Shown: positions 17,673-50,283 of the stretch, one piece after another
How the letters are laid out: the number at the start of each line of letters is the position of its first letter
Numbering within the stretch: position 1 is the first letter of the stretch
Assembly (NCBI GenBank): GCA_035290345.1
Contig: DATDUP010000006.1
Span: 1 to 53,887 of the forward strand
Length of the DNA stretch: 53,887 nt
Direction: 5' to 3'
Source: Patescibacteria group bacterium
GTDB taxonomy: Bacteria > Patescibacteriota > Patescibacteriia > Magasanikbacterales > UBA922
The notes under the pieces: model-generated
What the model was told of the DNA's origin: nothing
What the model saw: the letters and a program-made list of their open reading frames with translations, nothing else
The model's database searches: none
Program-made: the position numbers and the translations under genes

Positions 17673-17686
17673 AAATCATTTAAAAT

Positions 17687-17716
17687 AAAGCCCCTTTCCG
17701 GGGCTTTATTTTTTTT
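17687..17716. terminator. bidirectional intrinsic terminator between convergent genes
   Basis: AAAGCCCC (17687-17694), loop tttcc, GGGGCTTT (17700-17707). T9 follows on the + strand and an A-run precedes it, which gives a T-run on the - strand. The hairpin overlaps the last codons of the GT2 gene. Confidence 0.7.
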
Positions 17717-18419
17717 TCAAAGAAGGTAATTCGTTATGGTATGGTCGACGACCGACACAAAGACAAAGAAAATTAAAAAAATAACGACCCAGATAACGAT
17801 TGAGACGATAGCGACGGCCAGAAACAAAACACTTTAAACTCATATCCAATTTTATCCGTCCCAACCTGGCCAATTTCCGGCACAAATCTGAATCTTCTCC
17901 ATAGCGAAGTTGAGGGTCAAAACCAGTAGTTTGCTGATAATCCTTTTTTCGAAAGGTCATATTGTTCCCCATGGGACCCACCTGCCCCCCTGACACCACT
18001 CGGGCAAAAAACCAGAGAAGATAATGAATAAAAAAACGAATAAAATTAATACCAATCCCGGTATCATAATATATCATCTGCCCCCCCAGGCAAACCAATT
18101 GTTTATCCTGCGCAAACCTTTTCTCTACCTCTACCAAATAATTGGCTGGCAAACGGGTATCAGCGTCAATCTGCAAAATATAATCACCTTGGGCAATTTC
18201 TGTCCCAGTCCTTCTGGCCCAACCCACTCCCAGTCTTTTTTCTGAAACCACCCATACCCCCAATTCTTGCGCTAAAGACAACGTCCTATCCTGAGAATTA
18301 TTATCAACCACCACAATCTCATAGTCGTCGGCCGGGTAATTTAAATGCTTGGCCGCCTGAATACAGGCCACAATATATTCCTCTTCATCATGGGCGGGAA
18401 TAATTATAGAAAACTTCAT
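17706..18419 (-). CDS. family 2 glycosyltransferase
   Basis: FSIIIPAHDEEEYIVACIQAA...YEIVVVDNNSQDRT...QIDADT (DxD-type), a typical GT-A/GT2 N-terminus. Confidence 0.85.
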   Translation of the reverse strand: MKFSIIIPAHDEEEYIVACIQAAKHLNYPADDYEIVVVDNNSQDRTLSLAQELGVWVVSEKRLGVGWARRTGTEIAQGDYILQIDADTRLPANYLVEVEKRFAQDKQLVCLGGQMIYYDTGIGINFIRFFIHYLLWFFARVVSGGQVGPMGNNMTFRKKDYQQTTGFDPQLRYGEDSDLCRKLARLGRIKLDMSLKCFVSGRRYRLNRYLGRYFFNFLCLCVGRRPYHNELPSLKKK

Positions 18420-18474: not shown

Positions 18475-19014
18475 CTACCAAGTATTTGCTTCACCACCAT
18501 CCCAGAATTGCCCGAGACCGGTCGACTCTCCCAAGGGGTCGGGATTGTTAAAATCTTTCATATTTTCATCTACCTTGACTTCTACCCCAGCATAGAAAGG
18601 CTTATCAATTCCGCCTCCACCAGTAGTGGCTTCGCGCAAATATCGTTCCACAAACAAAGAAATACTAAAGGCCGAAAGGGTAATCAAAACACCGAGCACT
18701 GCATATTTGATTATTGTCTTTGCCTTATCCACCTGTTCGCTTTCTCCCCGCGAGGTCATAATCAAAAATCCGGCATAGACTGTATAGGCAGTAAAAATCA
18801 CCCCTATCGTCCCTAAAAGTATCTGTACTATATAGGTAGCTACCAACCGTGGGTCGCGGGCCTGCCCAAGATTGGCCCCCTGTTCTCCCGCTGCTGCTTT
18901 CAACTGAGTCTGCAATTCCGTTTTATAATCCGCTCCGACTTCTAAAACCGAAAAGGCTAAGCTACAAAAAACAGCTAAACAGAGAATAATAATGAATGAA
19001 AATTTTTTTTTCAT
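18475..19014 (-). CDS. VirB2/TrbC-like (T4SS-pilin-type) membrane hairpin protein, paralogue 1, Cys-free C-terminal tail
   Basis: Signal peptide MKKKFSFIIILCLAVFC, then hydrophobic helix, loop YAGFLIMTSRGESEQVDKAKTII, and second helix. I prefer the internal ATG at 19014. Confidence 0.7.
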   Translation of the reverse strand: MKKKFSFIIILCLAVFCSLAFSVLEVGADYKTELQTQLKAAAGEQGANLGQARDPRLVATYIVQILLGTIGVIFTAYTVYAGFLIMTSRGESEQVDKAKTIIKYAVLGVLITLSAFSISLFVERYLREATTGGGGIDKPFYAGVEVKVDENMKDFNNPDPLGESTGLGQFWDGGEANTW

Positions 19015-19015
19015 G

Positions 19016-19426
19016 TTATTTCGGTACCACCCCACCCTCGACTACGGCCTTAGAGATCCGTTCCAGGATGAAATAAGTGATTGAATATGAAACAAAAATA
19101 ACTGCCAGACCGATTACCGCGGCTCGAATAGTATTTCGCCCCTTGCTCAATCTTTCTTCTTCACCATGGGAAGTGATATACCAATAGCTCCCAAAAACAA
19201 TCAAAACAATGAACACTGATCCGACGGTTGCTAGGGCGAGGTAAATCAACCAGGCAATCGTCAGACGCGGATCTCCTGGTTGCTCCAGTTCCGCTCCTTT
19301 AGCTCCTGCTCCGATTTGTTGGTTCACCTGACCAACTAAATTAACCGCCTCCACCGGACTACTGGCCAATATGAAAAAAGACAAAAAGAAGAAGAGGGGA
19401 AAAACAAAACTGAAAATTTTTTTCAT
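19016..19426 (-). CDS. VirB2/TrbC-like membrane hairpin protein, paralogue 2 (short form)
   Basis: Signal peptide, DPRL motif shared with paralogue 1, loop FGSYWYITSHGEEERLSKGRNTI, and second helix. Confidence 0.65.
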   Translation of the reverse strand: MKKIFSFVFPLFFFLSFFILASSPVEAVNLVGQVNQQIGAGAKGAELEQPGDPRLTIAWLIYLALATVGSVFIVLIVFGSYWYITSHGEEERLSKGRNTIRAAVIGLAVIFVSYSITYFILERISKAVVEGGVVPK

Positions 19427-19428
19427 AA

Positions 19429-20064
19429 TTACTGACATATGGATGCTTTCACACTGGCCTGATATTCACACTTGTCTGCATCATAACCACCCTTAACGCA
19501 AATCTCCGTACATTCTTCGGCCGAAGCCACATCTAAGTAATATTGGGAGTCAAAGCAACCTTTTTTCCAGCCAGCTTCATCTGCTTCCCCCTCATCTTCA
19601 TCCGCCACCACCCAATCGCCCCAGCAACGTCGGCAGCAACTTACCATACTCTCATCCTCTTGCGTCTTGGGATTTACTTCCTCACTGCTTTCTAAAATGT
19701 TAGGGACAATAAAGGTGGTAACACTGTAAGCTCCCACCGTAAGAATCACTCCAATCACGCTGCCGGTAATTATCTTCTGAGCTTTTTTTACCTGATCCTC
19801 TTCCCCCCGGGCCGTCATCCAAAGATAGCCAGCATAAACCATCAACAAAAGAAAAATCGCCCCGACAAATGACAAGGCAATGGCGATGATATAACCAATG
19901 GTAACAGAAAAGGTCGTCTCGTTAGTTGAACCAGAATAACCAGCTTCAGTAGCAGCCATTTTCGTATCTTTCAAACCAAAATTCAAAGCTAAGGCCGGCT
20001 CAACACTTAGCCACACCAACAAGAGTAAACTAGCTAACAAACCGATTTTCCATTTTATTGACAT
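19429..20064 (-). CDS. VirB2/TrbC-like hairpin protein, paralogue 3, with acidic 8-Cys C-terminal module
   Basis: YAGYLWMTARGEEDQVKKAQKII between two helices. The C-terminus is SCCRRCWGD...GCFDS...ECTEICVKG...KCEY...SICQ. Confidence 0.75.
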   Translation of the reverse strand: MSIKWKIGLLASLLLLVWLSVEPALALNFGLKDTKMAATEAGYSGSTNETTFSVTIGYIIAIALSFVGAIFLLLMVYAGYLWMTARGEEDQVKKAQKIITGSVIGVILTVGAYSVTTFIVPNILESSEEVNPKTQEDESMVSCCRRCWGDWVVADEDEGEADEAGWKKGCFDSQYYLDVASAEECTEICVKGGYDADKCEYQASVKASICQ

Positions 20065-20067
20065 AAT

Positions 20068-20631
20068 TTATTCTTCGGCTTTTGGTTCCACACATTCTTT
20101 GGGATCAATTTTCCCTAAATATTCTCCCCCCTCATCAATACATTGCTTTTTATCCCATTGATATCGATCACAGGTGACTGACCAGGCACTTTCACATTTT
20201 TTACAACAATCTACCCCCAAATCGCCGGTCTCTGTTGTCCCTTCAGTAGAAGCTGTCCGACTCAAAATTCGAGGCACCACAAAATCTGTAATACCATAGG
20301 CTGAAACCACTATCACCAAACCGACCACCGCGGTTATCACTATCTTTTGCGATTTCTCTATATCGTTTTCTTCCCCCCGGGCCGTCATCCAAAGATAACC
20401 GGCATAGACCATCAATCCAAGAAATATCACCCCTAACATAGAAAGACCAGCTTTAACCGCCACTCCCACTGTTCTGGCTAAAGACTGCTCATTTGTTCCG
20501 CTATCATATTCAGCTGTCTTCGCTGCTTTTTCTACTTTACTAAAGCCAATATCCAAAGCCAAGACCTGGTTGGCTAACAAGATACTACTGAAAATTACTA
20601 GAATAACGGCACTGAGCTTAAACCTTCTCAT
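20068..20631 (-). CDS. VirB2/TrbC-like hairpin protein, paralogue 4, with 6-Cys C-terminal module
   Basis: YAGYLWMTARGEENDIEKSQKIV. The C-terminus is DCCKKCESAWSVTCDRYQWDKKQCIDEGG...KECVE. Confidence 0.75.
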   Translation of the reverse strand: MRRFKLSAVILVIFSSILLANQVLALDIGFSKVEKAAKTAEYDSGTNEQSLARTVGVAVKAGLSMLGVIFLGLMVYAGYLWMTARGEENDIEKSQKIVITAVVGLVIVVSAYGITDFVVPRILSRTASTEGTTETGDLGVDCCKKCESAWSVTCDRYQWDKKQCIDEGGEYLGKIDPKECVEPKAEE

Positions 20632-20637
20632 AACAAA

Positions 20638-21231
20638 TTATTTCTTGGGAGCACAACAAATAATATTATCTTTAGTCGCATTGTCGCCGGCCATACATTT
20701 CCCCACCTTACATATTTCAGGTGACTGTTCGCAATCGCTCAGTTGGGCTTCTAAATCTTCCTCATCTTCATCAAATGGATTGTCGTGTGTGGCATTACAG
20801 GTGTTGATATCTACACAACTCCAGCCGGGATTTTGTTTTTCACAATCATTTTGAAGAACCGTTTCTTGACTGCCGGATTGAAAACGCTTGGCCACAAGTA
20901 CGGTGATGGCATAGGCCGAGGCCACAATCACAAACCCAATCATGGTAGAAATAATTATCTTCTGGGCTTTCTCCACCTGACTTTCTTCCCCCCGGGCCGT
21001 CATCCAAAGATAGCCAGCATAAATCATCAGGATCATAAAAATTAAGCCCACAATACTCAAGGCAGCGTTAATTGCCTGACCGACCACTACATCCACACTA
21101 CTATAAGTCGTCGCTCCTGCCTTATCAGCAACAGCCGTTGCCTTGGTGCCAGCATCCTTCAATCCGGCGGCGGTTACTGAACTAAAAACCATTATTCCCA
21201 CAATTATTATTATAAAAACAAATTTCTTCAT
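20638..21231 (-). CDS. VirB2/TrbC-like hairpin protein, paralogue 5, with 8-Cys C-terminal module
   Basis: YAGYLWMTARGEESQVEKAQKII. The C-terminus is NDCEKQNPGWSCVDINTCNATH...DCEQSPEICKVGKCMAG...IICCAPKK. Confidence 0.75.
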   Translation of the reverse strand: MKKFVFIIIIVGIMVFSSVTAAGLKDAGTKATAVADKAGATTYSSVDVVVGQAINAALSIVGLIFMILMIYAGYLWMTARGEESQVEKAQKIIISTMIGFVIVASAYAITVLVAKRFQSGSQETVLQNDCEKQNPGWSCVDINTCNATHDNPFDEDEEDLEAQLSDCEQSPEICKVGKCMAGDNATKDNIICCAPKK

Positions 21232-21254
21232 AATTATTTGTTTGATTAGTCAAT

Positions 21255-21998
21255 TTAATCTTTCCCGATCAAATATTCCCAGCCAGACTGACTATCCTCT
21301 TCTTGCATTTCTGCCGCAGCCTCGCATTTACCGCTACTGGCCACCCCTTCCACAAATTCATAATAAGCCTGACCACACAATTCGTCCTGGTCATCGCAAT
21401 TATACCCGATTTCTTCGCAATCTGCTGCTGTAGTGATCAATCCCCGCCAATGAATAGGATGAATCTCTGATGCGGCCGCGATCGGGTCGCCAATTAAAGG
21501 AATCTCTTCTATTCCTTCCATAGGAAGATTACCAGGAACCCGATAAGCTTCCAAACAACATCCAGTTCCTTCTTCTCCGGCCACTCCAGTACTCTCCCCA
21601 GACAATGCTCCGGCTTTCTGGCCCTCCACCAGACGCGTCATAACAAAATTGGTGATGGCATAAGAGGAAACCGTGAGCACTAATCCAATACTGGCTGCAA
21701 TAATCGTCCCCCGAGCTTTATCTATTTGTTCTTCCTTGCCTTGAGCAGTAAACCACAAAAATCCACCATAAAATACCAAAACAAAGAAAATTAACCCCAC
21801 CATTCCGAGAGCCAGCTTAGCGGCCTTACCTCCGGCCTGTTCAACTGTCATTTCTTCTGCTCCAATTCCCACGTTTGCCTTAGCCGCAAAACTCTCCGCT
21901 TGAGTAGCCTTATATGCCGCTTCTGCTGGCACCACTAAAAACAAGAATAAGAATCCAGTTATCAATCCTCCTGTTATTATTGCTCTACTTCCAATCAC
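21255..21998 (-). CDS. VirB2/TrbC-like hairpin protein, paralogue 6, with 6-Cys C-terminal module
   Basis: YGGFLWFTAQGKEEQIDKARGTI. The C-terminus is GCCLEAY...ADCEEIGYNCDDQDELCGQ...GKCEAA. Confidence 0.7.
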   Translation of the reverse strand: MIGSRAIITGGLITGFLFLFLVVPAEAAYKATQAESFAAKANVGIGAEEMTVEQAGGKAAKLALGMVGLIFFVLVFYGGFLWFTAQGKEEQIDKARGTIIAASIGLVLTVSSYAITNFVMTRLVEGQKAGALSGESTGVAGEEGTGCCLEAYRVPGNLPMEGIEEIPLIGDPIAAASEIHPIHWRGLITTAADCEEIGYNCDDQDELCGQAYYEFVEGVASSGKCEAAAEMQEEDSQSGWEYLIGKD

Positions 21999-22599
21999 AA
22001 TGGTTAGCTTTATTCTTACAAAGTTGTTCAGTTAAACCACCACAAAAGGCGTTGGGGTTGGTCTTATAAGCGTCTTTTATCTTACACTCTACCGGATCGT
22101 TCGTCACCAGTTCACAGTACCCGGAATTAGTACAATCTTCGACCACATCAATTGCCGCACAAAACGACCCCATAGTTGTAGCCGCCGTTGCTTTTGCTAC
22201 ACAACCTGTCGCCACTTGGCTACTGCCGGTATTTGGTCCGCCACTACTTTGAATAGAACTAAAAACAAATTTAGTGATGGCGTAAGAGGACAGGACAATG
22301 ATGATGCCGATAATAGCGGCAATAATCGTTTGCAAAGCCTTTTTTTCCTCTTCCGCGCTTCCTTTAGCCAACATCCAAGTAATACCCCCATAGATCATCA
22401 GGCCAAAAAATAAAACACCGACCAAAGAAAGACCGGTTCCCAAAACTTTACCAATCAAGGTCGGCAGATCCGAACCACCATAGGCTGTCAAACCCGCTTC
22501 ACCAGCGGTCTCGGCCAAGCCATATTGAGCCAAAGTCACACCTGGAATCAAAACTGTAATAACTAGAATCAAGAAAAAAAACTTTCCTAGTCTGCTCAT
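21985..22599 (-). CDS. VirB2/TrbC-like hairpin protein, paralogue 7, with 8-Cys C-terminal module
   Basis: YGGITWMLAKGSAEEEKKALQTI. The C-terminus is GCVAK...FCAAIDVVEDCTNSGYCELV...ECKIK...FCGGLTEQLCKNKANHCDWK. It overlaps paralogue 6 by 14 nt. Confidence 0.7.
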   Translation of the reverse strand: MSRLGKFFFLILVITVLIPGVTLAQYGLAETAGEAGLTAYGGSDLPTLIGKVLGTGLSLVGVLFFGLMIYGGITWMLAKGSAEEEKKALQTIIAAIIGIIIVLSSYAITKFVFSSIQSSGGPNTGSSQVATGCVAKATAATTMGSFCAAIDVVEDCTNSGYCELVTNDPVECKIKDAYKTNPNAFCGGLTEQLCKNKANHCDWK

Positions 22600-22602
22600 A
22601 GC

Positions 22603-23019
22603 TTAAAAATTATCAAAGTTATAATATTCATCCCCCACTGTCGCCTTATACAACTGAGTCATGACAAACCGGGTAATGGCGTAAGCAGCAAAAATAATCA
22701 ATAAACCGATAACTGCCGCTATCAAAGTTTTCTTGGCCGAACCAATGGCGTCTTCATTCCCCGCCGAAGTCATCCACCTAAAACCAGCATAGAGAATGAT
22801 AACCGTACAAATCGTACCCAATAAACCCAAGGCCACAATGATTATTTGGGCAACTGTAAAACGCACATCTTCGCTTCCCAAACCGGTCGCCTTACCATAT
22901 TCCAACCCTAAATAAGGACCGGTACTCTGAGCCGAAGCCAACATCGGTAAACCAAAAACTAAAAACAAAGAAAAAACAACCGCTAACAAAGAAGGTAGTG
23001 CTATTTTTTTTGTGGACAT
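22603..23019 (-). CDS. VirB2/TrbC-like pilin-type protein, paralogue 8 (minimal 138-aa form)
   Basis: Signal peptide ...LPMLASA, then helix, YAGFRWMTSAGNEDAIGSAKKTL, helix and a short tail. AAGGAGGG lies upstream. Confidence 0.75.
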   Translation of the reverse strand: MSTKKIALPSLLAVVFSLFLVFGLPMLASAQSTGPYLGLEYGKATGLGSEDVRFTVAQIIIVALGLLGTICTVIILYAGFRWMTSAGNEDAIGSAKKTLIAAVIGLLIIFAAYAITRFVMTQLYKATVGDEYYNFDNF

Positions 23020-23164
23020 AGTTTAAAACAATAAATACTGGCTACCCTCCTTTTTCTTACCACTATTTACTGCTCATGAGCAGTACCCTGCCCCGGATCA
23101 TGATACGGGGCAGGGTGTGATTGTTACTAAAACTGTTTTAGTAGCCATCGCTACTGGCAAATGA
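23020..23164 (-). promoter_or_regulatory. highly structured intergenic spacer (four consecutive hairpins/palindromes) between paralogues 9 and 8
   Basis: Perfect 18-nt palindrome tactgctcatgagcagta (23068-23085). 10-bp GC stem ccctgccccg/cggggcaggg (23086-23115). tactaaaac/gttttagta (23125-23143). gtagc/gctac (23141-23154). Confidence 0.5.
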
Positions 23165-23593
23165 TTAGAGTTCTTCTGTCGCGTAATCTTCACCAGTGGT
23201 GGCCAAATACAATTGCTCAAGTACGAACCGGGCGATAGCGTAAGCGGTTAGAATAATACCCAAACCGATTACTCCAGCAATGATCAATTTCTTCGCTTCG
23301 GCAACCTTATCTTCATTACCGCCGGCTGTCATCCATTTGAAACCACCAGCCAAGACGATCACAACGGCGACGATACCCAACATACTCAACGCTACGTTGA
23401 TAATATTGGAAATCATGTCGCGCAGATCCTGATTGCCTAAACCGGTTTTCTTGCCATAAACCAAACCGAAGTTTATCGTACCAGTTGCGTCCTCTGCGGA
23501 CACCAACATTGGAGCCACAAAAGTTGCCAATATCAAAGATAGAACCACGGTTACCACTACCTTATTTTTTGCCAAATTTATTAACCAAGACAT
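23165..23593 (-). CDS. VirB2/TrbC-like pilin-type protein, paralogue 9 (minimal 142-aa form, candidate major subunit)
   Basis: Signal peptide ...PMLVSA, LAGGFKWMTAGGNEDKVAEAKKLI between two helices. It has a strong SD AAGGGGGTGA and is the only member flanked by intergenic spacers on both sides. Confidence 0.75.
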   Translation of the reverse strand: MSWLINLAKNKVVVTVVLSLILATFVAPMLVSAEDATGTINFGLVYGKKTGLGNQDLRDMISNIINVALSMLGIVAVVIVLAGGFKWMTAGGNEDKVAEAKKLIIAGVIGLGIILTAYAIARFVLEQLYLATTGEDYATEEL

Positions 23594-23641: not shown

Positions 23642-24601
23642 TTATTTTGCTTTTAAACTCCCGGTATCTATCGGAGTTAGCTGTATTCCCTCCAAACTCT
23701 TTCCGCCGGTTGCCCCCAATCCTTGAATCACGAGCTGTAGTATACCATAGGCAGCAAAAATGATAAACAGTCCAATCACTGCGCTCACCATCGCTTTCTG
23801 TCCCTTCTTAAATTTTTCTTCATCACCAGCAGCCGTGATGAACATAAAGCCGCCATAGACAAACACCACCAAGGTCACCGAACCGATCAACCCCATGGCA
23901 TAAGCTATTATCTTTCCTAACAAAACTCGCATATCCAATAGGCCGGTCGGTTTGGCCACTGTCCCACCCAAAGGATTAATCAAGCTCACCACGGTTTGGC
24001 TGACATCTGAAGCTGCACCCGCCGGTGTTGTCCCAGCATCAACCCCCCCTGAAGCTGGTGGGGTATCGGCACATGCCCCCTCTTTCCATTCGCAAGCCTT
24101 ACTACTGGCAATCAATGTCTTACACAATTTTTGACAATCAGAAGCTTCATCCCCAGTGCAATCCCAACTAGTTAATTTGGCGCTGGTCAAGGTCTTCTCA
24201 AAAGCAGCTGGACAATCCAAATTAATATGTTCTTTGACAAAAAGACGAACATAATCAGGGCTGCCAGCACAAGCATCACACTTAGTTGGGTCAGTCAGAC
24301 AGTCGTCCATTTGGTTCGGTTCTTTGCAGAATATTAGGGAAGCGGACCCGTCTTTTATTTTACCATCCAAAAATCCATTCCACAGCACACCAAATACACC
24401 CGAGCCCATACAATCATCTTTCTGAGCAAAAACCAAATCACCAGCCGCTGTCTTAGCCACATCTCCTTCTTCGATTGGTCCTGATTCACTTCCTGTCCCA
24501 TAAAAACAAACCGGAGATACTGTTTCTGCCCGGACGATTAGTGGCAACAACAAAAATGACCCTAGCAGTAGAAATGGTAAAACAAATCTTCGCTTTTCCA
24601 T
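23642..24601 (-). CDS. 12-Cys N-terminal ectodomain fused to a C-terminal VirB2/TrbC-like hairpin, paralogue 10
   Basis: Signal peptide MEKRRFVLPFLLLGSFLLLPLIVRA and a Cys-rich region of about 190 aa. Then LGKIIAYAMGLIGSVTLVVFVYGGFMFITAAGDEEKFKKGQKAM and a second helix. I prefer the internal ATG at 24601. Confidence 0.7.
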   Translation of the reverse strand: MEKRRFVLPFLLLGSFLLLPLIVRAETVSPVCFYGTGSESGPIEEGDVAKTAAGDLVFAQKDDCMGSGVFGVLWNGFLDGKIKDGSASLIFCKEPNQMDDCLTDPTKCDACAGSPDYVRLFVKEHINLDCPAAFEKTLTSAKLTSWDCTGDEASDCQKLCKTLIASSKACEWKEGACADTPPASGGVDAGTTPAGAASDVSQTVVSLINPLGGTVAKPTGLLDMRVLLGKIIAYAMGLIGSVTLVVFVYGGFMFITAAGDEEKFKKGQKAMVSAVIGLFIIFAAYGILQLVIQGLGATGGKSLEGIQLTPIDTGSLKAK

Positions 24602-24611
24602 ACACTTATAA

Positions 24612-25532
24612 TTAATAGTTCCTAAAGTCATAAAGCGGACTGACCCCAACCGCATCTAATAAAAATTCTACCAAAATATAAGCAGATAAAGAAATCGCCA
24701 TCCCTACAACCGCAGCTAAAATTATCTGATAACCTTTCCGTGTTCTCTCTGGATTGCCAAAAGAAGTGATTATTGTGAACCCACCGTAGATAAAAAAGGC
24801 AAAAGCAAATGAACCAATAATTACCAGAAGACCGTTGGCAAAATTCACTAATAACTGCAACAAATCATTGGTACTCCGGCAGGTTCCAGAAAAAGCGCAG
24901 GGGGGCAAGGCCCCTTTATAACCTTCGGGGGTGGGATATTTTTTCTGCCAGTATTGTGACTGAACATCCCCTGGAGCGCCAGCACTTCCTCCGGCCACTT
25001 CCGCACACGTACCATCAGCCTGCAATTCGCAACCGTTAAAAGCGGCACAGATAGATTTACATTTTTCTTTATTCGCCTCTTCATTGCAATCAACTGTTCC
25101 GATGGCTTTGGCAAAATCCTCTTGGCAGGAAGCAGCCACTTTTTGTCCCTGCTTCATTTTGGTCATTTGGCAAGTGCCACACTCATCTGAATTAACACAT
25201 TTGTCATAATCCGCCTCCGGACAAGTGCCTTGAATGCACTTATAGCTAGTTATTTTTTCCGCATCAACCCCTTGCTCAAAGGCCTTGGCTATACTGTTAA
25301 TACAATCGTCAGCGGTTTGATAACTATAAGGAGCATTAAAATCACCACCCAAAGAAAGATTCCCACTACTGCCGAATGGGAAAGCCAGGTTCAATGGTTC
25401 TGTTTCTGCTCCTTCCATCCAGGCACAATTACAAACATCCTTATCAGCCGCGGCTACTGACAATGGAGTGGCCAGACTGAACAAAACGCCAAAGGTAAGA
25501 AAAACTACAACAAAAAATATCTTAGGATGCAT
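24612..25532 (-). CDS. 16-Cys N-terminal ectodomain fused to a C-terminal VirB2/TrbC-like hairpin, paralogue 11
   Basis: Signal peptide ...PLSVAAA and a Cys-rich region (DVCNCAW...KCIQGTCPEADYDKCVNSDECGTCQ...). Then YGGFTIITSFGNPERTRKGYQII and a helix. Confidence 0.7.
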   Translation of the reverse strand: MHPKIFFVVVFLTFGVLFSLATPLSVAAADKDVCNCAWMEGAETEPLNLAFPFGSSGNLSLGGDFNAPYSYQTADDCINSIAKAFEQGVDAEKITSYKCIQGTCPEADYDKCVNSDECGTCQMTKMKQGQKVAASCQEDFAKAIGTVDCNEEANKEKCKSICAAFNGCELQADGTCAEVAGGSAGAPGDVQSQYWQKKYPTPEGYKGALPPCAFSGTCRSTNDLLQLLVNFANGLLVIIGSFAFAFFIYGGFTIITSFGNPERTRKGYQIILAAVVGMAISLSAYILVEFLLDAVGVSPLYDFRNY

Positions 25533-25534
25533 AT

Positions 25535-26914
25535 TTATAGGGTTTGTTGAATTAATTGGGCCGCGTATTTCACTAAAGCGGCATCCCGATCCAATTTTTT
25601 CTTATCCGTACCACCAAAGGGCTGAAGGTAACTATGTAACATATCCTTGATCGCCTTTTCAGCCGCGACCGAATCCCGACCCCGATACCAATTTTTAGAT
25701 TGCAAGAGATATTCAGTAAACGGTGCTAGCACCAAATCCTGGCGTTGCTCTTCCACCTGAGAACGGACTGGGCTGGGTTGTCTAACCGCTTCGGTATATT
25801 TTTTGATATTCTCCTTACTAGTGATGAACTTGATAAAATCCCAGGCTTCATTAGCGTTCTTACTCTTACGCGAGACTGTCTCCACCCAATAATTAGCAAT
25901 ATTTACCGGCGCGCTACTATTGAGTTGGGGTATGGGCAAAATTTCCACATCCATTTGTGGCGCTCGCGCTTTTATCCGCTGGTAATCATAAGAGAAACCA
26001 AAGTAAAAAGTCAGTTTACCTCGAGCAAAAGCCTGAAGAGCGTCCTCATTAGACTCATTCCAACAATAAACTTCTTTGGTGGGCTGGGCAAAATCTGTAT
26101 AAAACCTTAAGGCGGCCAAGGTAGCATTATTCTCTTGTGGTTTATCCAAACCAGCGGTAAAGGCCACCCGATTACCCTCGGTCATTTTCACCCCACTCTG
26201 CAACATGAATAAAGACAAAAGATCAAAAGCCCGAGGAATATTATTCCCTGTTCCCAAAGCCACCCCGGATTGGACAACATTTCCCTGAGCGTCAAACTTG
26301 GTGGTCGCCTTGACTGCTTCCATAAAATCTTCCCAAGTCTGGGGTGGTTCAGGAATGTTAGCTTGATCCAAAAGTTCTTTATTGTAATACAGAGCTAAAG
26401 TATCGACAGACAGAGGAAGACCAATAATTTGACCGTTAACAATGGCGTCTTCGTAGACAGTAGTAATAAAATTAGACTTAATCGCCGCTGGTGTCGGCAT
26501 TTTTACTTCGATCGGAGTCACGATGGTTTCTTTCGCATATTTCCCCTTGATCTGCACATCTGCTACTTTGACACTGGCTGGCATGTCCGCTAGTCGATTA
26601 AGATATTTACGGATATCTTTCACATTTACCGAGATAATATCCGGCGACACATCGTCAGCCAAGGCATTCAAAAGTAAGGTGTCAAATTCTTCATAACCCA
26701 CCTTACGAATATCAACGGTCACATACGGCCGCATCTTTTTATATTCTTCTGCCATTTGTTCCAAGATGCCGATATCATTGGTGATCGTCCAGTATTTCAA
26801 AGTTACTGGTTTGATTGCGGCCTGTTCTTCGGCTGACAATCCTTTACAACCAAAGCCACTGATTAACAAAACAACTGCGGCCAGAAGGGAAAATAATTGT
26901 TTGGTTTTTTTCAT
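25535..26914 (-). CDS. ABC-transporter extracellular solute-binding lipoprotein (sugar-type, family 1-like)
   Basis: MKKTKQLFSLLAAVVLLISGFGC (lipobox-like) followed by a typical SBP sequence of about 440 aa. I prefer the internal ATG at 26914. No permease or ATPase gene is adjacent. Confidence 0.7.
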   Translation of the reverse strand: MKKTKQLFSLLAAVVLLISGFGCKGLSAEEQAAIKPVTLKYWTITNDIGILEQMAEEYKKMRPYVTVDIRKVGYEEFDTLLLNALADDVSPDIISVNVKDIRKYLNRLADMPASVKVADVQIKGKYAKETIVTPIEVKMPTPAAIKSNFITTVYEDAIVNGQIIGLPLSVDTLALYYNKELLDQANIPEPPQTWEDFMEAVKATTKFDAQGNVVQSGVALGTGNNIPRAFDLLSLFMLQSGVKMTEGNRVAFTAGLDKPQENNATLAALRFYTDFAQPTKEVYCWNESNEDALQAFARGKLTFYFGFSYDYQRIKARAPQMDVEILPIPQLNSSAPVNIANYWVETVSRKSKNANEAWDFIKFITSKENIKKYTEAVRQPSPVRSQVEEQRQDLVLAPFTEYLLQSKNWYRGRDSVAAEKAIKDMLHSYLQPFGGTDKKKLDRDAALVKYAAQLIQQTL

Positions 26915-26921
26915 AGTCTTA

Positions 26922-27809
26922 TTATTTTTTGAAAGCTTCAAAGACAAAATTTACCACGACATAACTAGACAGGACCACAATCACCCCTAGACCGGTCTGC
27001 ACTAAAATTTTTTGGGCATGAGCTCTCTTATCTGGGCTACCGCCGGAAAACATCCAAATGATTCCGGCATAGACAAACATGACTAGAGCAATACTTCCTA
27101 ATAATTGTAAAATAGTCTTTATAATCTTCCCTAAAAGACCTTGCAAGGTCACTTTACCGCCGATTTGATTCAATTTACCCGCTCCTACTCCCAAAGAAAA
27201 CGGAGCAGAAGTAATGATCGTTGGCCCACCAGCGTCCCCAGCCTCATTACTCACTGGCGTCCCTCCATCCACATGCCAATTTACAGAAAAATTTTCACAA
27301 AGATTCTCCGTCCCTCCGGGTACTTCTATATCGGTAATCAGGGGCTTTAATCTGCTTTCACATTCTGCCGTCCACCAGTAAACAAAATCCTGGGCCTCTT
27401 TTTGCATTATTCCCCCGCACCCCGCCTCCTTACTTCCCTCTCGGACATAACATTGATAGCCAGTATACCCGTCACTGGCTGCCCGTAAACTGCATTGACT
27501 TACCAAAGTAGATGTTTCTTCTCCCTCGTTCAGATTGGGCATGCACACCCATTTGATATCCACCCCGATGATCAGGGCGGCTCTTACCTCGTCATTACTC
27601 TTACCTTCTTTCTGCATTTGTTCCACTTCTTGAATATTTTCCAAAAGCTTCTCTTTGGCCGTCTCAATCGGCAGTTCCGAACACACACAGTACTTTTCGG
27701 CTTGCACAAAAACAGGAAACAAAACAAAACCCAGGGCCAGAAACAAACTGGCCGCTCCTAAAAAAATCCATTTATTTAAAAGCTTCGAAAACAAAGGTGA
27801 CAATAACAT
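26922..27809 (-). CDS. Cys-rich N-terminal ectodomain fused to a C-terminal VirB2/TrbC-like hairpin, paralogue 12
   Basis: Signal peptide, then CVCSELPIETAKEK...VCMPN...QCSLRAA...YQCYVREGSKEAGCGG...AECES. Then YAGIIWMFSGGSPDKRAHAQKIL and a helix. The start overlaps paralogue 13 by 38 nt and is uncertain. Confidence 0.65.
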   Translation of the reverse strand: MLLSPLFSKLLNKWIFLGAASLFLALGFVLFPVFVQAEKYCVCSELPIETAKEKLLENIQEVEQMQKEGKSNDEVRAALIIGVDIKWVCMPNLNEGEETSTLVSQCSLRAASDGYTGYQCYVREGSKEAGCGGIMQKEAQDFVYWWTAECESRLKPLITDIEVPGGTENLCENFSVNWHVDGGTPVSNEAGDAGGPTIITSAPFSLGVGAGKLNQIGGKVTLQGLLGKIIKTILQLLGSIALVMFVYAGIIWMFSGGSPDKRAHAQKILVQTGLGVIVVLSSYVVVNFVFEAFKK

Positions 27810-28626
27810 AGCTGGCCAAAACGATAATTATTCCTAAAGCTGATTCTAATAAAATCTTCAAAGCCTTGCCCTGTTGATCTGATTTGCCGCCAGCGGTCAT
27901 CCATAATACCCCGGCATAGACAAAAACCACCAAAGCCACACTGCCTAATAATTGAAGAGCGATTTTAATCATCACCCCGATAAAGACCTGAATTTTCCTC
28001 TGGCTCCCACCCAAACCCAATTGATCAATTTTTTTCGCATTCGCACCAAAACTAAAATTGAAACCACTTGCTGCCGCCCCAGTACTCGTAGCTGCACCGG
28101 CTGTCCCCACAGTAGTACCTTTCAAATTTTTATAACTAAAATTGACACTAAGAAAATCACAGGGACTAATAAGTTCCGAAACTCCGTCCCCGGAATATTT
28201 TTGGTACGGTACTAATTTGTCACTGCACTCTACCTGGGCCCAAGCTGACAAATCCTTGGTATGAGCAATGGCCATCTCTTCGCAACTGGCGTATTTTTGC
28301 TCCACTTCACAGGTATAAGCGCTATAAGCACTATCACTGTGCAGTTGTTTGTTGCATTCGGCCAAAATCGTCGCTTTGTCCCCGCCCGTTACTCCCTCCA
28401 AACACACCGCCTGACTCTCCAGCTTTATTTCATCAATCTTAAAGGCCGGATCAGCCTGTTGTTTTGCCTTTAATTCCTCAAATATTCCAGCACTGGCGGC
28501 CTTAACTTGTTCGGTTGTTTCAGAGGCACAAACACACAGGTCAATTGCTCGCGCCACTGACCCAACAAAAAATAAACCCATGACAATTATCAGTCCAAAT
28601 AAAATTTTTTGTCCCCTTCCGGCCAT
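27772..28626 (-). CDS. Cys-rich N-terminal ectodomain fused to a C-terminal VirB2/TrbC-like hairpin, paralogue 13
   Basis: Signal peptide, then LCVCASETTEQVK...VCLEG...ECNKQ...YTCEVEQKYASCEE...VECSD, collinear with paralogue 12. Then YAGVLWMTAGGKSDQQGKALKIL and a helix. Confidence 0.7.
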   Translation of the reverse strand: MAGRGQKILFGLIIVMGLFFVGSVARAIDLCVCASETTEQVKAASAGIFEELKAKQQADPAFKIDEIKLESQAVCLEGVTGGDKATILAECNKQLHSDSAYSAYTCEVEQKYASCEEMAIAHTKDLSAWAQVECSDKLVPYQKYSGDGVSELISPCDFLSVNFSYKNLKGTTVGTAGAATSTGAAASGFNFSFGANAKKIDQLGLGGSQRKIQVFIGVMIKIALQLLGSVALVVFVYAGVLWMTAGGKSDQQGKALKILLESALGIIIVLASYVIVTFVFEAFK

Positions 28627-28633: not shown

Positions 28634-29479
28634 TTATTTCTTTCTGTTCCTTACCCGTTTTTGGTAAAAATGCTTAGTGGCTCGCATTAATTTTTCATCA
28701 TCGCCAGTGTCTAAAAACTTACCTCGATAAATATAAGCGTAGAATTCACCCTTCTGAGCCAGAGCATTAGCCGCATCCGCCATCCAGATCTCACCATCTT
28801 TGCCTTTTTGCTGTTGTTCTAGCGCTGACCAGATCTCCTTGGTAAAAACATAACGCATCCCTCCTACCACCAGATGATCCGGAGAAGCATTTTCTAGGGC
28901 TGGTTTTTCCACAAATTTCTCTACCCGGTAAGTCCGAGGGGCAACTAGACGACCATATACATTGCCATACCGAACCAAGTCCTCTTTATTCCTCAATTGC
29001 TGCACCCCAATTACCGGGGCGTGATATTTTTTATAAACTCGCAACAGTTGTTTGATGGCTGGAGTAGCCGAATCAATAATACTATCGCCCTCTGAACAGA
29101 CAAACGGATCGTCGCCAATCAATTCCTTGGCCATTAGTAGAGCATGGCCATTCCCCAAAGCTTCATTCTGGTAAGCATAGCTGATTTTCACTTTTCCCAA
29201 TAAGTCCACCAAGTGTTCAATCCGATGATACTTGTCTTTGGCTCTTAATGTTTCCTCATATTCCGGATTGCGGCTAAAATAATCCTCTATTAGTCTTTTT
29301 TCCTTATTTATTATAATAACCACTTCCTCCATTCCACTCCCCACTAATTCTTCTACCGTATACTGAAGAACCGGCTTATCCAAAACCGGCAACATTTCTT
29401 TGGGTAACACTTTAGTGACCGGCAAAAAACGCGTCCCCAAACCGGCCGCTAAAATTACTCCTTTGCGTATCTTCGACAT
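28634..29479 (-). CDS. galU: UTP--glucose-1-phosphate uridylyltransferase
   Basis: GVILAAGLGTRFLPVTKVLPKEMLPVLDKPVLQYTVEE is the canonical GalU N-terminus. Confidence 0.85.
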   Translation of the reverse strand: MSKIRKGVILAAGLGTRFLPVTKVLPKEMLPVLDKPVLQYTVEELVGSGMEEVVIIINKEKRLIEDYFSRNPEYEETLRAKDKYHRIEHLVDLLGKVKISYAYQNEALGNGHALLMAKELIGDDPFVCSEGDSIIDSATPAIKQLLRVYKKYHAPVIGVQQLRNKEDLVRYGNVYGRLVAPRTYRVEKFVEKPALENASPDHLVVGGMRYVFTKEIWSALEQQQKGKDGEIWMADAANALAQKGEFYAYIYRGKFLDTGDDEKLMRATKHFYQKRVRNRKK

Positions 29480-29537
29480 AACTAATTAACTGTTAATTGT
29501 GTATTCATTATAACAAGAAAACTCACTTTACCCAAGC

Positions 29538-30923
29538 CTAAAGAATCTCTTCCCAGCTGATTAATTCATAAGAATTACCTGTCGGAAAACCCGGGGGCGG
29601 ATAATACTTCAGATTACCATCATAACTGTGGTTGGTATTTTCGTAACCAGAAATCACATGCCCCCAACCGCTCACATATTTCCAGCCGCCGCCGGCAAAA
29701 GAAATCTGCGAACCAAAAATAGTCAGGGTGTCCTTAAGGTCACCGTCGTAGTAGGGACGATGCACTGCTCCGTATTGAGAAAGCATAGCAGCATTTATTT
29801 CCATAATATCCGGCGTCTCGTAAGGCACAATCACATTGCCCTGGGCCATCAGACCAATTACATCATCCGCTGCTTTTTCCTTGTAAGTCAGGTTGTTATT
29901 CACAATAATCGTCATGTAAGTTTCCTCTTGAACCGGAAACCGGCCGGCCGCAATGGTTATTCGTCCGTCCACCACCCCCTCAACCCAGACGTGGTCATCG
30001 CTAAAAATCATACCATTGGCCGGTAAATTATCAGTGGAAACAAAATCCTCGGTTTTGATGTCAAAACAATTTTGATCATAAACCCACCATTTTCCATGCT
30101 TTTCCCCCTGGCCGTTATAACAATCTCGGTTGTTCACCACATACAGATCATAAGTACCATCTTCGGCAAATACCAGATGCCAGCCTTCTTTTCCCGAAGT
30201 ATACAGATGCAAACCACCATCCTCATCCGCCGCCTCCATTATCTTAGACATGTCCCCACTCACCAAGTCAAAATCAATAGCCGGCACTGGATAGACCCAA
30301 AAAGATTTAGGTCCACCGCCTCCCCACACCCCGTCATGCCACTGGGTTAAATACTGATAACGATCCTTAGCGCTCTTTACCCAAGAGTCAGTCGTCCCAT
30401 CAAAGCGGATACCACCGTTGGAATGAACTGTGCCGTGTACTTCTGTGGTATAACTAAAATTCATGTTGGCATTAGACAAAAAAGTGTAATCCGCCCAAGA
30501 CGGGAATCCCACTCGTACTTGGATAGTGCGAGTAGTCGAGGGATTAACCACAGTCCAACCTGTAGAACGAACCACTACTACCGTACTCCCTGACAAAGGC
30601 GGATCAATATCTAAAGAAAAATACCCAATCAAATTCCCGTCTTTGTCTAAATACTCATGTTCATACGGCCCGGCTGATTCTTCCCCCTGGCCATCATAAT
30701 AATCAGTGGGGTTGTGGGCCAAATGCCAACGATAATAGTTGATACCTGCTTCGGCGATATGAAAGGCGATGTCTCGATCATATTTCCGGTTGGAAGCCTT
30801 GCTTTCAAACAAGGCATAACTAGTAATACCCAGGGTAATCATAGTAAAGGCGACCGTTCCAAAAACCAAAGCCATGACCAAAATGTTGCCTCGATTTTTC
30901 TTATTAGACACCAACCAACACAT
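29538..30923 (-). CDS. PilX-like / pilus-assembly minor component with N-terminal membrane anchor
   Basis: RGNILVMALVFGTVAFTMITLGITSYALF resembles a PilX_N-type anchor. A beta-rich domain of about 400 aa follows. It is translationally coupled to the pseudopilin upstream. Confidence 0.5.
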   Translation of the reverse strand: MCWLVSNKKNRGNILVMALVFGTVAFTMITLGITSYALFESKASNRKYDRDIAFHIAEAGINYYRWHLAHNPTDYYDGQGEESAGPYEHEYLDKDGNLIGYFSLDIDPPLSGSTVVVVRSTGWTVVNPSTTRTIQVRVGFPSWADYTFLSNANMNFSYTTEVHGTVHSNGGIRFDGTTDSWVKSAKDRYQYLTQWHDGVWGGGGPKSFWVYPVPAIDFDLVSGDMSKIMEAADEDGGLHLYTSGKEGWHLVFAEDGTYDLYVVNNRDCYNGQGEKHGKWWVYDQNCFDIKTEDFVSTDNLPANGMIFSDDHVWVEGVVDGRITIAAGRFPVQEETYMTIIVNNNLTYKEKAADDVIGLMAQGNVIVPYETPDIMEINAAMLSQYGAVHRPYYDGDLKDTLTIFGSQISFAGGGWKYVSGWGHVISGYENTNHSYDGNLKYYPPPGFPTGNSYELISWEEIL

Positions 30924-30924
30924 A

Positions 30925-31533
30925 TCAGGTTTGTTTAAGATTTCTAATCTGTACGAGAGTCTCCACTTGCAAAGGAACTGGTGTTTCGGTCGGATCTTTT
31001 TCTAGTTCTAGATGCAAACGCACTGACCGCACATTCGCCGCCTCAATCGGTTCAATCAGGGCGCCTTCACTACCAGTGTAATCTTCATCATAATATAGAA
31101 AAACTGGTTCATCTTTGGTTAAATTAACCACATCACTCGCTAAAATCTTCTCTGTTTCTTCTCCCTCATACGCCAGAGGGGTACCACTAGGTTTGATCAC
31201 TCCCATTTTAAAATCTGTACCAGCTAAATAAAAACGGACGCGTTCTCGATAAGCATCACCATCCACATTAGCATAAAGGACCAGGGTAGTTGAGGAGGCT
31301 GATTCCAAAGCAAAAGAACCAATATTAGAACTTTCCGCCCGACGAACGATGTCAACCACTTTTTGCAGAGCCTGCCGACCCTCGTTTTGGGTCTTTAGTT
31401 GCTCCCAGATAACGGCATTATAACGAAAAGAATAAATTACCAATGCAGTCAAACCGGAAACCAATAAAGAAACAATCGCAATAACAATAATTACCTCTAA
31501 AAGAGAGAACCCCAATTGTGATCTTTTCCTCAT
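30925..31533 (-). CDS. type IV pilin-like pseudopilin (prepilin-type N-terminal cleavage/methylation signal)
   Basis: MRKRSQLG|FSLLEVIIVIAIVSLLVSG is a class III signal peptide (G-F-x-L-L-E followed by a hydrophobic helix). Confidence 0.8.
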   Translation of the reverse strand: MRKRSQLGFSLLEVIIVIAIVSLLVSGLTALVIYSFRYNAVIWEQLKTQNEGRQALQKVVDIVRRAESSNIGSFALESASSTTLVLYANVDGDAYRERVRFYLAGTDFKMGVIKPSGTPLAYEGEETEKILASDVVNLTKDEPVFLYYDEDYTGSEGALIEPIEAANVRSVRLHLELEKDPTETPVPLQVETLVQIRNLKQT

Positions 31534-31534
31534 A

Positions 31535-33331
31535 TTAGGCTGGGGTAAGATTTACTGACAATAAAGTATTCCCTTCCACGGTGACGGTCGTAGCATATTC
31601 AGAATAGCCAACGCCAGTCACTATCAAAGAATACTCCTGGTTGCTCAAATTACCGAAATAGGCCTGGCCCGGGGGTGTGCAGGCATTAGTATAAGTTAGG
31701 GCCAGACTAGATATAGTGGGGGTGTAGGTCGTGGAAGCGGTGGATAAAAATAATTTATAACGAAAGTATTGATCACCGTCGTGAATTTCCGAAATAATAT
31801 TGTTAGTGGAATCGTAATAAGTAGATCCAGTGCCATCAGGACCCAGATAATTCCAAAACTCCGGGATCGTGGATGTGGCCGTAGCCACCTGCCAACGGAC
31901 CGCATCTGTTCCCACAGCTTCTGGCTGAGCCAAAGGTTCCCAAATTAAAGAACCATAGTTGGCTTCTGTACCTAAATCAAAAACCGAAGATTCAAGCTGA
32001 CCACCAGATACATAACCAGGCCACAATTCACTTAACTGAATATTCCCGGGATCAGCCATCACTTCGACTCGACCATCATCTGACCAGTACTTGGTTAAAT
32101 CCTCGGCCAATAGCTGTCCTGTCCCACCAGACCAATCGGTCTGGCTCTTGTGACCAACGCCAGTCAATTGACTAGAAGAATAGCCAATAGCTGACAAAAC
32201 AGCGGTGGCATTAGGTACGGCCTGACCAGTAATACTGTCCGTCACATGTACTAACAAAGAATGGCTGGTATTAGGTCCCAAAATTAGTTGCACCGGCTGA
32301 TCCACTCCTGGTAAAACCGCCACTGGTAATTGCGGAATGGTCCCCAACAAATCGTAATTATCACTGTCCAGACTATAAATGTCCCAAATCAAATTCAGCC
32401 GACTATACAGACCACCCCCGTCAGTATTCACAATTTCGTTAACTTTATAGATGTCCGGTTCTGTGCCAGACAATTTGGTTCCAATCAAACTGACCGGAAC
32501 ACTTGATTCAGATACACACAGGTTGTTAACGGTTGAGAGCAACAAAGAAGAAACTAAATCAATATTGAAACCAATTTCCGTCACCTCCTGGGCCACTACT
32601 GAGGCAGGTAATTTTGTGGGATGAGGATTTTCTTCCGAAGGAATAATCGTTTGGTCAGTGGTAAAATCATCTCCGTCTTTAGAAACACTGACTTGATAGG
32701 CTCCGATACCTTCGCCCAAATCTACCAGCCGCAACATTCCTTCGTTATCAGTCGTATCCCATAAATCAATCGCCGGATCAGTAGAGGTAGCCACCACATG
32801 CACATCCGCGCCCCCAACTGGTTGTCCCTGGGCATTCAGAACATTGATAAACAAGGCGCCATGATCCAGGCTCCCTTCCAAATTTTTCGGGGAAACAAAA
32901 GTGGTGGCAATCAAGGACTGCTTTTGACCACAAGTATCACAAATTACGGCTACCTCTACCAATTTATAATCAGCCGGAGCTATATCATTCGGAACCCCAC
33001 CGATTACACCGTCAAATTCATCGTCAATATTGCGGACAGTGCGAGTCAATGTAAAATCAATACCATTCCGAGTCGTGGTAGCGATGTGAGTCAAGACACC
33101 GCTTGGGCTACCATTAATAATTCCAACATCAACAAAACGTAAGTTACGAATTATTTCCAATTCTTCATTGAGAATCCCTGTTTCCACCACTCGCAACCGC
33201 GACTGATAAACTATTTTAAAAACAAACTGCAGGCCACCATAGATCCCGGCGGCAAAAATTACAAAAACCGCAATTGCTATCACTACTTCTAATAACGCAA
33301 AACCTCTGCTGTTTACAACTGCTTTTTTCAT
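31535..33331 (-). CDS. giant (598 aa) type IV pilin-like protein with prepilin-type signal
   Basis: MKKAVVNSRG|FALLEVVIAIAVFVIFAAG. Beta-rich segments resemble carboxypeptidase-regulatory/Ig-like folds (GGADVHVVATSTDP...NEGMLRL; SLIVTGVGYSEYATTVTVEG). Confidence 0.75.
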   Translation of the reverse strand: MKKAVVNSRGFALLEVVIAIAVFVIFAAGIYGGLQFVFKIVYQSRLRVVETGILNEELEIIRNLRFVDVGIINGSPSGVLTHIATTTRNGIDFTLTRTVRNIDDEFDGVIGGVPNDIAPADYKLVEVAVICDTCGQKQSLIATTFVSPKNLEGSLDHGALFINVLNAQGQPVGGADVHVVATSTDPAIDLWDTTDNEGMLRLVDLGEGIGAYQVSVSKDGDDFTTDQTIIPSEENPHPTKLPASVVAQEVTEIGFNIDLVSSLLLSTVNNLCVSESSVPVSLIGTKLSGTEPDIYKVNEIVNTDGGGLYSRLNLIWDIYSLDSDNYDLLGTIPQLPVAVLPGVDQPVQLILGPNTSHSLLVHVTDSITGQAVPNATAVLSAIGYSSSQLTGVGHKSQTDWSGGTGQLLAEDLTKYWSDDGRVEVMADPGNIQLSELWPGYVSGGQLESSVFDLGTEANYGSLIWEPLAQPEAVGTDAVRWQVATATSTIPEFWNYLGPDGTGSTYYDSTNNIISEIHDGDQYFRYKLFLSTASTTYTPTISSLALTYTNACTPPGQAYFGNLSNQEYSLIVTGVGYSEYATTVTVEGNTLLSVNLTPA

Positions 33332-46532: not shown

Positions 46533-46558
46533 ATACTAACAGGTTAAAATTTATTGTT

Positions 46559-46960: not shown

Positions 46961-46991
46961 AATGGTTAATTAAGATGAATGAACCGATAAA

Positions 46992-47189
46992 TTATTTTTT
47001 GTTTTGACACTCACTAAGATATTTATTATACATTTCTTTATTCAGTTTGGGGACGGCTGTGTCATCATATGCCTTCCAGTATGCCGCCTCCACACATGGT
47101 CTTTCACTGTTTATTTTCAGAATATAAAGAGTAAGTAGGATTACTGGTATTAAGATGATTAATAGCGAAATGATTAGTATTTTTCTCAC
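46992..47189 (-). CDS. small single-pass membrane protein (65 aa, 2 Cys)
   Basis: MRKILIISLLIILIPVILLTLYIL followed by a polar tail with two cysteines. Confidence 0.4.
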   Translation of the reverse strand: MRKILIISLLIILIPVILLTLYILKINSERPCVEAAYWKAYDDTAVPKLNKEMYNKYLSECQNKK

Positions 47190-47232
47190 AACTTTGGAAT
47201 AATTGATTCAATTATGAATTGGTTGTTCGGTA

Positions 47233-49255: not shown

Positions 49256-49271
49256 ATTAAGATGGGTATAA

Positions 49272-50276: not shown

Positions 50277-50283
50277 TTTGGAA

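Follow-up and report, generated by a model that had tools for sequence, protein, structure and literature searches.

We have analysed a 53,887-nt stretch (from here on, the window) of contig DATDUP010000006.1, assigned to a Patescibacteria group bacterium of the Magasanikbacterales, in which 13 co-oriented open reading frames (ORFs) on the minus strand, between positions 18475 and 28626, have a helix-loop-helix in common. All ten array paralogues that were scanned against Pfam match PF18895 (T4SS_pilin). Paralogues 8 and 9 (138 and 142 aa, 22603..23593, also PF18895) are minimal members without ectodomain and, within the group of paralogues 1-7 (18475..22599), members 3-7 begin with the signal peptide and, immediately behind it, the hairpin, and end in a tail containing 6-8 cysteines. 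Here we focus on paralogues 10-13, of the opposite polarity, in which a cysteine-rich stretch of 181-200 aa, including a low-complexity linker of 30-50 aa, is placed between the signal peptide and a hairpin located at the extreme C-terminus. With 284-319 aa, they depart both from the usual PF18895 size (~110-160 aa) and from the usual layout, in which nothing separates the signal peptide from the hairpin. The same genes appear on five independently assembled contigs (four of them among the matches listed), and the record of paralogue 11 (P0152) was named 'pilin' by NCBI. This recurrence, together with the finding of the same architecture in 55 related loci (see below), excludes an artefact of misassembly or ORF fusion.

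All four genes are encoded on the minus strand. Paralogue 13 (27772..28626, 284 aa) has a predicted signal peptide at aa 1-27, cleaved between ARA and IDLCVC, followed by an ectodomain with eight cysteines, a linker of Gly, Ala, Thr and Ser, and the hairpin (aa 209-284, 27775..28002; PF18895 at aa 209-279), whose second helix is the end of the protein. In paralogue 12 (26922..27809, 295 aa) the signal peptide (aa 1-37, cleaved between VQA and EKYCVC) precedes an alpha/beta ectodomain, also with eight cysteines (~aa 38-174), a disordered linker (~aa 175-221) and the hairpin (aa 222-294, 26928..27146; PF18895 at aa 221-289), with predicted helices at 222-254 and 259-294. An orphan solute-binding protein (SBP) gene encoding a lipoprotein (25535..26947, start at 26914 in public gene calls; SBP_bac_8 and SBP_bac_1) separates paralogue 12 from paralogue 11, and neither a permease nor an ATPase gene adjoins it. 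Paralogue 11 (24612..25532, 306 aa) consists of a signal peptide (aa 1-28), an ectodomain with 16 cysteines, the juxta-hairpin motif TPEGYKGALPPCAFSGTCRSTN (24867..24932; family consensus P.GY.GPLP.CAF.G.CR..N, from alignments) and the hairpin (24648..24872), with helices predicted at aa 221-256 and 261-295 with a predicted local distance difference test (pLDDT) score of about 77-87. Finally, paralogue 10 (23642..24601, with the ORF extending to 24655) has 319 aa when counted from Met19, the start used in public gene calls, and comprises a signal peptide (aa 1-26), an ectodomain with 12 cysteines plus linker, the motif LINPLGGT, the hairpin (aa 227-290 of this form, 23732..23923) and a 29-aa tail. 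The earlier note on this DNA had described a domain of 190-230 aa ahead of a C-terminal hairpin; the placement holds for all four proteins, the length was overestimated. Its counts of 12 and 16 cysteines for paralogues 10 and 11 agree with ours, the former being valid from Met19 (13 in the longer ORF).

The PF18895 scores of paralogues 10, 11, 12 and 13 are 36.1, 26.6, 36.7 and 28.2 bits (gathering score 26.6 bits), and the match is C-terminal in every case (245-308 of 337 aa in the long ORF form of paralogue 10, 226-291 of 306, 221-289 of 295, and 209-279 of 284, respectively). Paralogue 11 scores exactly at the threshold, and its membership is supported by the match to the minimal members: when the C-terminal segments were compared by hhalign with the minimal paralogues 8, 9 and 2, the probability was 99% (E 5.4e-18, 83 columns), so that the earlier proposal that they are the same hairpin is borne out by a profile-profile comparison. 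The combination of a Sec-type signal peptide, two long hydrophobic helices and a short charged loop is seen in the hydrophobicity scan, in the helices predicted by AlphaFold2 (AF2) and in the loop sequences, and the hairpins retain the signature residues of the family (Y-G-G, the loop G, K-G, the helix-2 G and A-Y). Similarity to the conjugative pilins of PF04956 (gathering score 27.9 bits) is below threshold, with 16.7 bits for paralogue 12 and 25.3 bits for paralogue 8 (positions 1-96 of the 98-position model). A comparison of the family profile with PDB sequences gave no solved pilin or other match. By structure, Foldseek placed the conjugation pilus of Aeropyrum pernix (8dfu) at rank 8 in the PDB, a non-significant match (E 3, TM score 0.57 to the target).

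Paralogues 12 and 13 are 31% identical over their full length (E 7e-42), their N-domains alone are still recognizably related (E 4e-10), and their eight cysteines all align, with the hairpin more conserved than the ectodomain (60 vs. 26% identity). The collinear cysteine pattern described before for these two is thus confirmed, with one cysteine more than the pattern listed. A different picture emerges for paralogues 10 and 11, whose N-domains alone are weakly similar (E 0.02) and whose hairpins are 33% identical, and alignment between the 10/11 and 12/13 pairs is confined to the hairpin. Of the two tandem-duplicated pairs originally proposed, 12/13 is the sole clear duplicate pair, and paralogues 10 and 11 belong to two separate, older orthologous groups, both with positional orthologues of their own in further genomes.

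To place these proteins among their relatives we used two collections. An exhaustive profile search with paralogues 12 and 13 retrieved 19,530 family members at E<=1e-3, the best 150 of which, a set biased to hairpins resembling those of 12/13, were sorted with a custom hairpin hidden Markov model (HMM): 94 have at least 110 aa ahead of a C-terminal hairpin, 27 are minimal, one has a domain on both sides and 28 are single chains with 2-6 tandem hairpins (P0091, P0099, P0065, P0135, P0004 and others), which look like entire arrays joined in a single polypeptide. Cysteines are present in 92 of the 94 C-terminal-hairpin relatives, 38 have CxC just past the signal peptide as in paralogues 11-13, and 10 give a weak match to PF04956 at E<1e-3. 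Secondly, a scan of species-representative genomes yielded 78 related loci, 24 of them labelled Magasanikbacteria, and C-terminal-hairpin members occur in 23 of these 24; the class was not found in the three Falkowbacteria and the two Uhrbacteria loci. The 613 hairpin ORFs of the related loci divide into 336 minimal, 151 with a C-tail, 107 with a C-terminal hairpin, 16 with domains on both sides and three with more than one hairpin. The C-terminal-hairpin class is represented in 55 of 76 loci, and 101 of its 107 ORFs take one of the first three positions in their array; members of the class are nearly always found towards the 5' end, adjoining the SBP gene. The arrays have a median of nine and a maximum of 14 hairpin members per locus (13 in the window). 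To call this architecture inverted, as the earlier note did, is misleading: proteins with a C-terminal hairpin make up a stable and widespread class and are no local rearrangement. An orthologue of the SBP is present in 57 of the 78 loci; with E values reaching 1e-177, its conservation far exceeds that of its neighbours. In 18 loci it lies between hairpin genes, as it does in the window, and in 38 it comes first in the array. Two loci also contain giant proteins of 3025 and 2771 aa (L016 9887-18964 and L041 9857-18172), with 112 and 121 cysteines, in which an N-terminal T4SS_pilin hairpin is followed by 4-5 Big_5 immunoglobulin (Ig)-like domains, adhesin-like and hairpin-anchored in appearance.

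Within these loci, the orthologous groups could be followed by hairpin and position. The hairpin of paralogue 11 is 46-62% identical to its orthologues and always C-terminal, in what is always the first gene after the SBP; the 17 positional orthologues of the group share the juxta-hairpin motif and differ widely in N-domain length. Hairpins closest to those of 12/13 are followed by 0-3 aa in all but two of the top matches, with the N-domains of 12/13 themselves being orphans. Orthologues of the paralogue 10 hairpin (44-50% identical, with the pre-hairpin motif LINPxGGT) have the cysteine-rich domain after the hairpin (L026, L066 and L057), on both sides (L006, L078, L039 and L022) or not at all (L007). 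Moreover, a cysteine module of ~59 aa found before the hairpin in L039 and L078 lies after it in the orthologous L069, and pairwise comparison of the transposed copies gave 41% identity over 59 aa (E 7e-11) in one case and 35% over 93 aa (E 7e-9) in the other. A BLAST comparison of N-domains against C-tails gave 11 matches at E<=1e-3 (best 6e-9), against two (best 9e-5) in the reversed-sequence control. Use of one hairpin at either end of the protein, with domains shuffled around it, had already been suggested, and the paralogue 10 orthologues and the transposed module corroborate it. Minimal paralogues 8 and 9 are the best conserved members, 56-75% identical to their orthologues in other genomes, and are the candidate core subunits.

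Cysteines are largely a property of the extensions, both N- and C-terminal, where they make up 4-10% of the residues, compared to 0.84% in other ORFs and about 0.09 cysteines per hairpin. Paralogues 10, 11, 12 and 13 have 12, 16, 8 and 8, respectively. Even counts are found in 118 of 141 N-ectodomains (84%, p 7e-17) and in 128 of 129 C-tails (99%, p 2e-37). The simplest reading of parity and enrichment is that these cysteines form disulfides, and hence that N-ectodomains and C-tails would both be extracellular. If both extensions are outside, both termini of the hairpin should be outside too, with the loop in the cytoplasm, and this would explain why cargo is tolerated at either end. Adjacent or near-adjacent cysteines are common at the start of extensions: the C-tails of paralogues 3, 4 and 6 (19429-21998) open with SCCRRC, DCCKKC or GCCLEA, and the N-ectodomains of many relatives begin with CxC or CC, 2-6 residues past the signal-peptide cleavage site. 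A four-cysteine module (C-x6-10-C-x4-7-C-x-[WFYL]-x3-9-C) considered as common to N-domains and C-tails was dropped, its enrichment being weak (14 compared to a shuffled mean of 3-5 and a shuffled maximum of 11-14); it was not found in paralogues 10-13.

The N-domains of paralogues 10-13 matched no Pfam family, PDB fold or well-known enzyme family, so the trivial enzymatic explanation that the earlier note had contemplated finds no counterpart in the Pfam and fold searches; among the 94 C-terminal-hairpin relatives no Pfam domain was found besides the hairpin. The AF2 model of paralogue 12 (from an alignment of two sequences) shows a compact alpha/beta N-domain at aa 40-165 (pLDDT 70-83) and a disordered linker at aa 175-227 (pLDDT <50, and <30 over aa 180-220), and in that of paralogue 11 (11 sequences) the N-domain is poor, with pLDDT about 40-60. 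A Foldseek search of the PDB with both models returned no significant match, the best ones being generic helical hairpins. Neither phmmer nor an iterated HMM detected homologues of the 12/13 and 10 N-domains among the 78 related loci, so a deep N-domain alignment could not be built. For paralogue 12, the exhaustive profile search found self-fragments (P0001 and P0002) and one doubtful full-length relative (P0006) only; a word-index protein search missed paralogue 12 itself, though it is on record on five contigs, and blanks of that search are not evidence of absence. Overall, most ectodomains are orphans, and the N-domains of 111 proteins split into 55 clusters, among proteins whose orthologous hairpins are 45-62% identical.

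From these data we propose that, within the VirB2-like (PF18895) hairpin family of Patescibacteria, paralogues 10-13 form a class with N-terminal ectodomains that co-assembles with the minimal paralogues 8/9 as accessory subunits, a proposal to which we assign an even chance. Very probably, a cleavable Sec signal peptide exports a disulfide-bonded, fast-evolving ectodomain, followed by the flexible linker of 30-50 aa; the first hairpin helix then serves as stop-transfer, leaving the short charged loop in the cytoplasm, and the second returns to the outer face. With the two hairpin ends outside, an extra domain could be fused to either of them and still be displayed. Because all the signature residues are kept and the hairpin is far better conserved than the ectodomains, we infer that it would be an assembly module, more than an anchor. 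Paralogues 10-13 could be low-abundance priming, tip or decorating subunits that form with 8/9 a single VirB2-like membrane or filament structure and, by analogy with the minor pilins of other pilus systems, would present variable host-contact domains. Co-assembly is preferred because of the retained signature residues and high hairpin identity and because operon order is conserved, with C-terminal-hairpin ORFs early in the array and the well-conserved minimal members after them. Whichever the structure, the C-terminal-hairpin design is probably a means of displaying variable domains for host contact, be it on a filament or on the cell surface, and the Ig-like repeats that the hairpin carries in the giant proteins, an adhesin-type cargo, also count for display.

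Several observations weigh against co-assembly. A Pfam scan of the window ORFs of at least 100 aa lying outside longer ORFs found no VirB4, VirB6, VirD4, VirB3 or VirB8, and VirB4, VirB6 and VirD4 were not found within 10 kb of the arrays in the 78 related loci either. No observed filament of PF18895 proteins is reported in PMC12857230, PMC10633639 or PMC11665869. The hairpin fold is non-discriminating, since Foldseek ranks the hairpins of ATP-synthase subunit c and complex I alongside 8dfu, and the ectodomain models are weak (mean pLDDT 57 and 60 for the two). The loop has a slightly positive net charge and no more, so the topology leans mainly on cysteine parity. Besides, a domain of ~20 kDa, or one of 3000 aa, on every subunit would not fit the VirB2 lattice, which would make incorporation sparse or terminal.

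Nearly as likely as co-assembly is that the hairpin is an anchor alone, general-purpose, which merely tethers surface proteins such as adhesins or binding proteins to the single cytoplasmic membrane, paralogues 10-13 never entering a filament; by itself we consider this a serious, if tentative, alternative. The lack of type IV secretion system (T4SS) machinery near the arrays and the generic fold just mentioned both fit it, as do the presence of the same hairpin in the giant Ig-repeat proteins, the long flexible linkers in the paralogue 12 model and the conservation at the locus of the lipoprotein SBP, another membrane-tethered surface protein. An anchor, however, needs hydrophobicity alone, yet the signature residues are kept and hairpins remain 45-62% identical where ectodomains are unalignable, and the place of the genes in the conserved array is fixed, beside minimal members that have nothing to anchor. 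It is improbable, on the other hand, that the array serves the neighbouring pseudopilins, without any T4SS, and that paralogues 10-13 are accessory parts of that type IV pilus system. Two pseudopilins with the N_methyl motif and a 461-aa protein do lie upstream on the same strand and recur in 31-35 of the 78 loci, and one related locus has a T2SSE ATPase, but such linkage indicates co-regulation at most. The hairpin proteins have signal peptides of signal peptidase I type and lack the class III prepilin signal (the N_methyl motif, PF07963, was not found in paralogues 10-13 by the Pfam scan that detected it in the upstream neighbours), and their matches are to PF18895 and weakly to TrbC, with none to type IV pilins. 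Least credible of all is that the cysteine-rich domains are effectors or toxin subunits released from a hairpin acting as carrier or pro-domain. This idea has a precedent in the pertussis-toxin analogy drawn for the Saccharibacterial 'Sec-secreted arrays' of TM7x (PMC7427843), and signal peptides together with disulfide-rich domains are usual in secreted proteins. Against it, neither a protease site nor a toxin domain was detected, two hydrophobic helices of ~35 residues predict stable membrane integration, and the arrays have since been reinterpreted in the literature as VirB2-like pilins (PMC12102498).

A broader version of the co-assembly proposal would make the hairpin a display scaffold of either polarity, in which an ultrasmall bacterium with a single membrane would make one filament or membrane platform of hairpins from two conserved core subunits and decorate it with changeable disulfide-rich ectodomains, fused to either hairpin end; these domains and the SBP would set host range and nutrient capture at the contact between epibiont and host, and module hopping across the hairpin would create new specificities. 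We put this forward as a speculative and, taken as a whole, rather unlikely scenario.

Regarding the genomic context, the window is chromosomal and near the replication origin, with dnaA and dnaN present and a change in the sign of GC skew near 40 kb. The array belongs to a conserved block on one strand that runs through type IV pseudopilins, the 461-aa protein and a GalU-type nucleotidyltransferase (together at 28634..33331, minus strand, from the Pfam scan and conserved synteny), then the array and a family 2 glycosyltransferase (GT2); GalU is conserved in 56 of the 78 loci. The GT2 gene (17706-18419, minus strand) and a strong bidirectional terminator (17682-17712) end the block. This terminator, with a 13-bp stem, is located between the converging GT2 gene and ORF 17154-17672, and is the sole strong one between 17.5 and 33.6 kb, which fits one long transcription unit. 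Within the array, a scan for promoters and terminators gave sites at chance level and no convincing terminator. As sugar-nucleotide and glycosyltransferase genes flank the array, the context suggests that the Ser/Thr/Gly-rich linkers could be glycosylated. No recurrent large ATPase was found within 10 kb in the related loci, the candidates checked being FtsK, SMC, the T2SSE ATPase and RecQ. Elsewhere in the window, the stretch at about 46000-52000 has a low GC content (0.355-0.374 vs. about 0.44 in the rest) and codes for a HopJ-like protein, two GNAT acetyltransferases, a methyltransferase and a radical-SAM/SPASM enzyme, which could point to an acquired island or to a cluster for peptide modification. 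No Pfam family was matched by four minus-strand ORFs (36707-38509, 12880-13884, 12030-12815 and 52361-53629, of 600, 334, 261 and 422 aa), the first of which directly adjoins dnaA.

Patescibacteria account for a large and mostly uncultured share of bacterial diversity and depend on host cells. Many of the array members are not bare pilins but hairpins with hypervariable outer domains, putatively disulfide-bonded, at either end, in a gene order conserved beside a solute-binding protein and type IV pilus genes. This makes the ectodomains concrete candidates for host recognition and suggests a division of labour, in which the conserved minimal members would build the core and the variable extended ones would have accessory roles. 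As a carrier that takes cargo at either end, the hairpin might also be used in engineering, to display proteins on a cell surface.

Arrays of VirB2-like pilins are widespread in Patescibacteria and are described as sets of 2-11 small pilins, sometimes interrupted by a non-pilin gene, often near dnaA and usually near virB4 (Quinonero-Coronel et al., 2025, PMC12102498). In Southlakia epibionticum, the sole species tested genetically, an array of this kind is essential (Wang et al., 2023, PMC10633639). A 2025 review draws attention to the arrays as structures that may be pili of a monoderm bacterium, with its single membrane (PMC12857230); in earlier work they had been labelled arrays of small Sec-secreted proteins (PMC7427843). 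Our array shares with them the Pfam family, the Sec signal peptide, the two-helix hairpin, the divergent tandem paralogues, the site near dnaA and the interrupting non-pilin gene, and it differs in having 13 members, none near virB4, four of them with a cysteine-rich front ectodomain of 180-200 aa and five with cysteine-rich tails. In the parts consulted of the four publications just cited there is no mention of cysteine-rich ectodomains, C-terminal hairpins, polarity switching or a conserved SBP; the array itself is of a known kind, and as far as those parts go the N-terminal-ectodomain class is undescribed.

A second comparison is with the TrbC/VirB2/TraA conjugative pilins (PF04956) and archaeal CedA1, which also have a signal peptide and a hairpin of two hydrophobic helices, and to which the profile matches are weak. 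Pilins of the F-pilus and the T-pilus have both termini on the outside and a loop that points to the cytoplasm or the lumen. To our knowledge, classical conjugative pilins have 70-120 aa and no globular domain. Unlike proteins of the TrbC/VirB2/TraA group, those of the array have sub-threshold scores for that family, no PDB pilin related by sequence and no linked VirB machinery found. Finally, the proposed design of a conserved assembly module with a variable outward domain resembles that of type IV minor pilins, for instance those located at the tip, and that of VirB5, the tip protein of T4SS pili. Minor pilins and VirB5 function in priming or adhesion, have low copy numbers and are encoded in clusters that include the major-subunit gene. 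In the former the module is a single N-terminal helix carrying a class III signal and VirB5 is a helical bundle, whereas here it is a two-helix hairpin, with cargo at either end.

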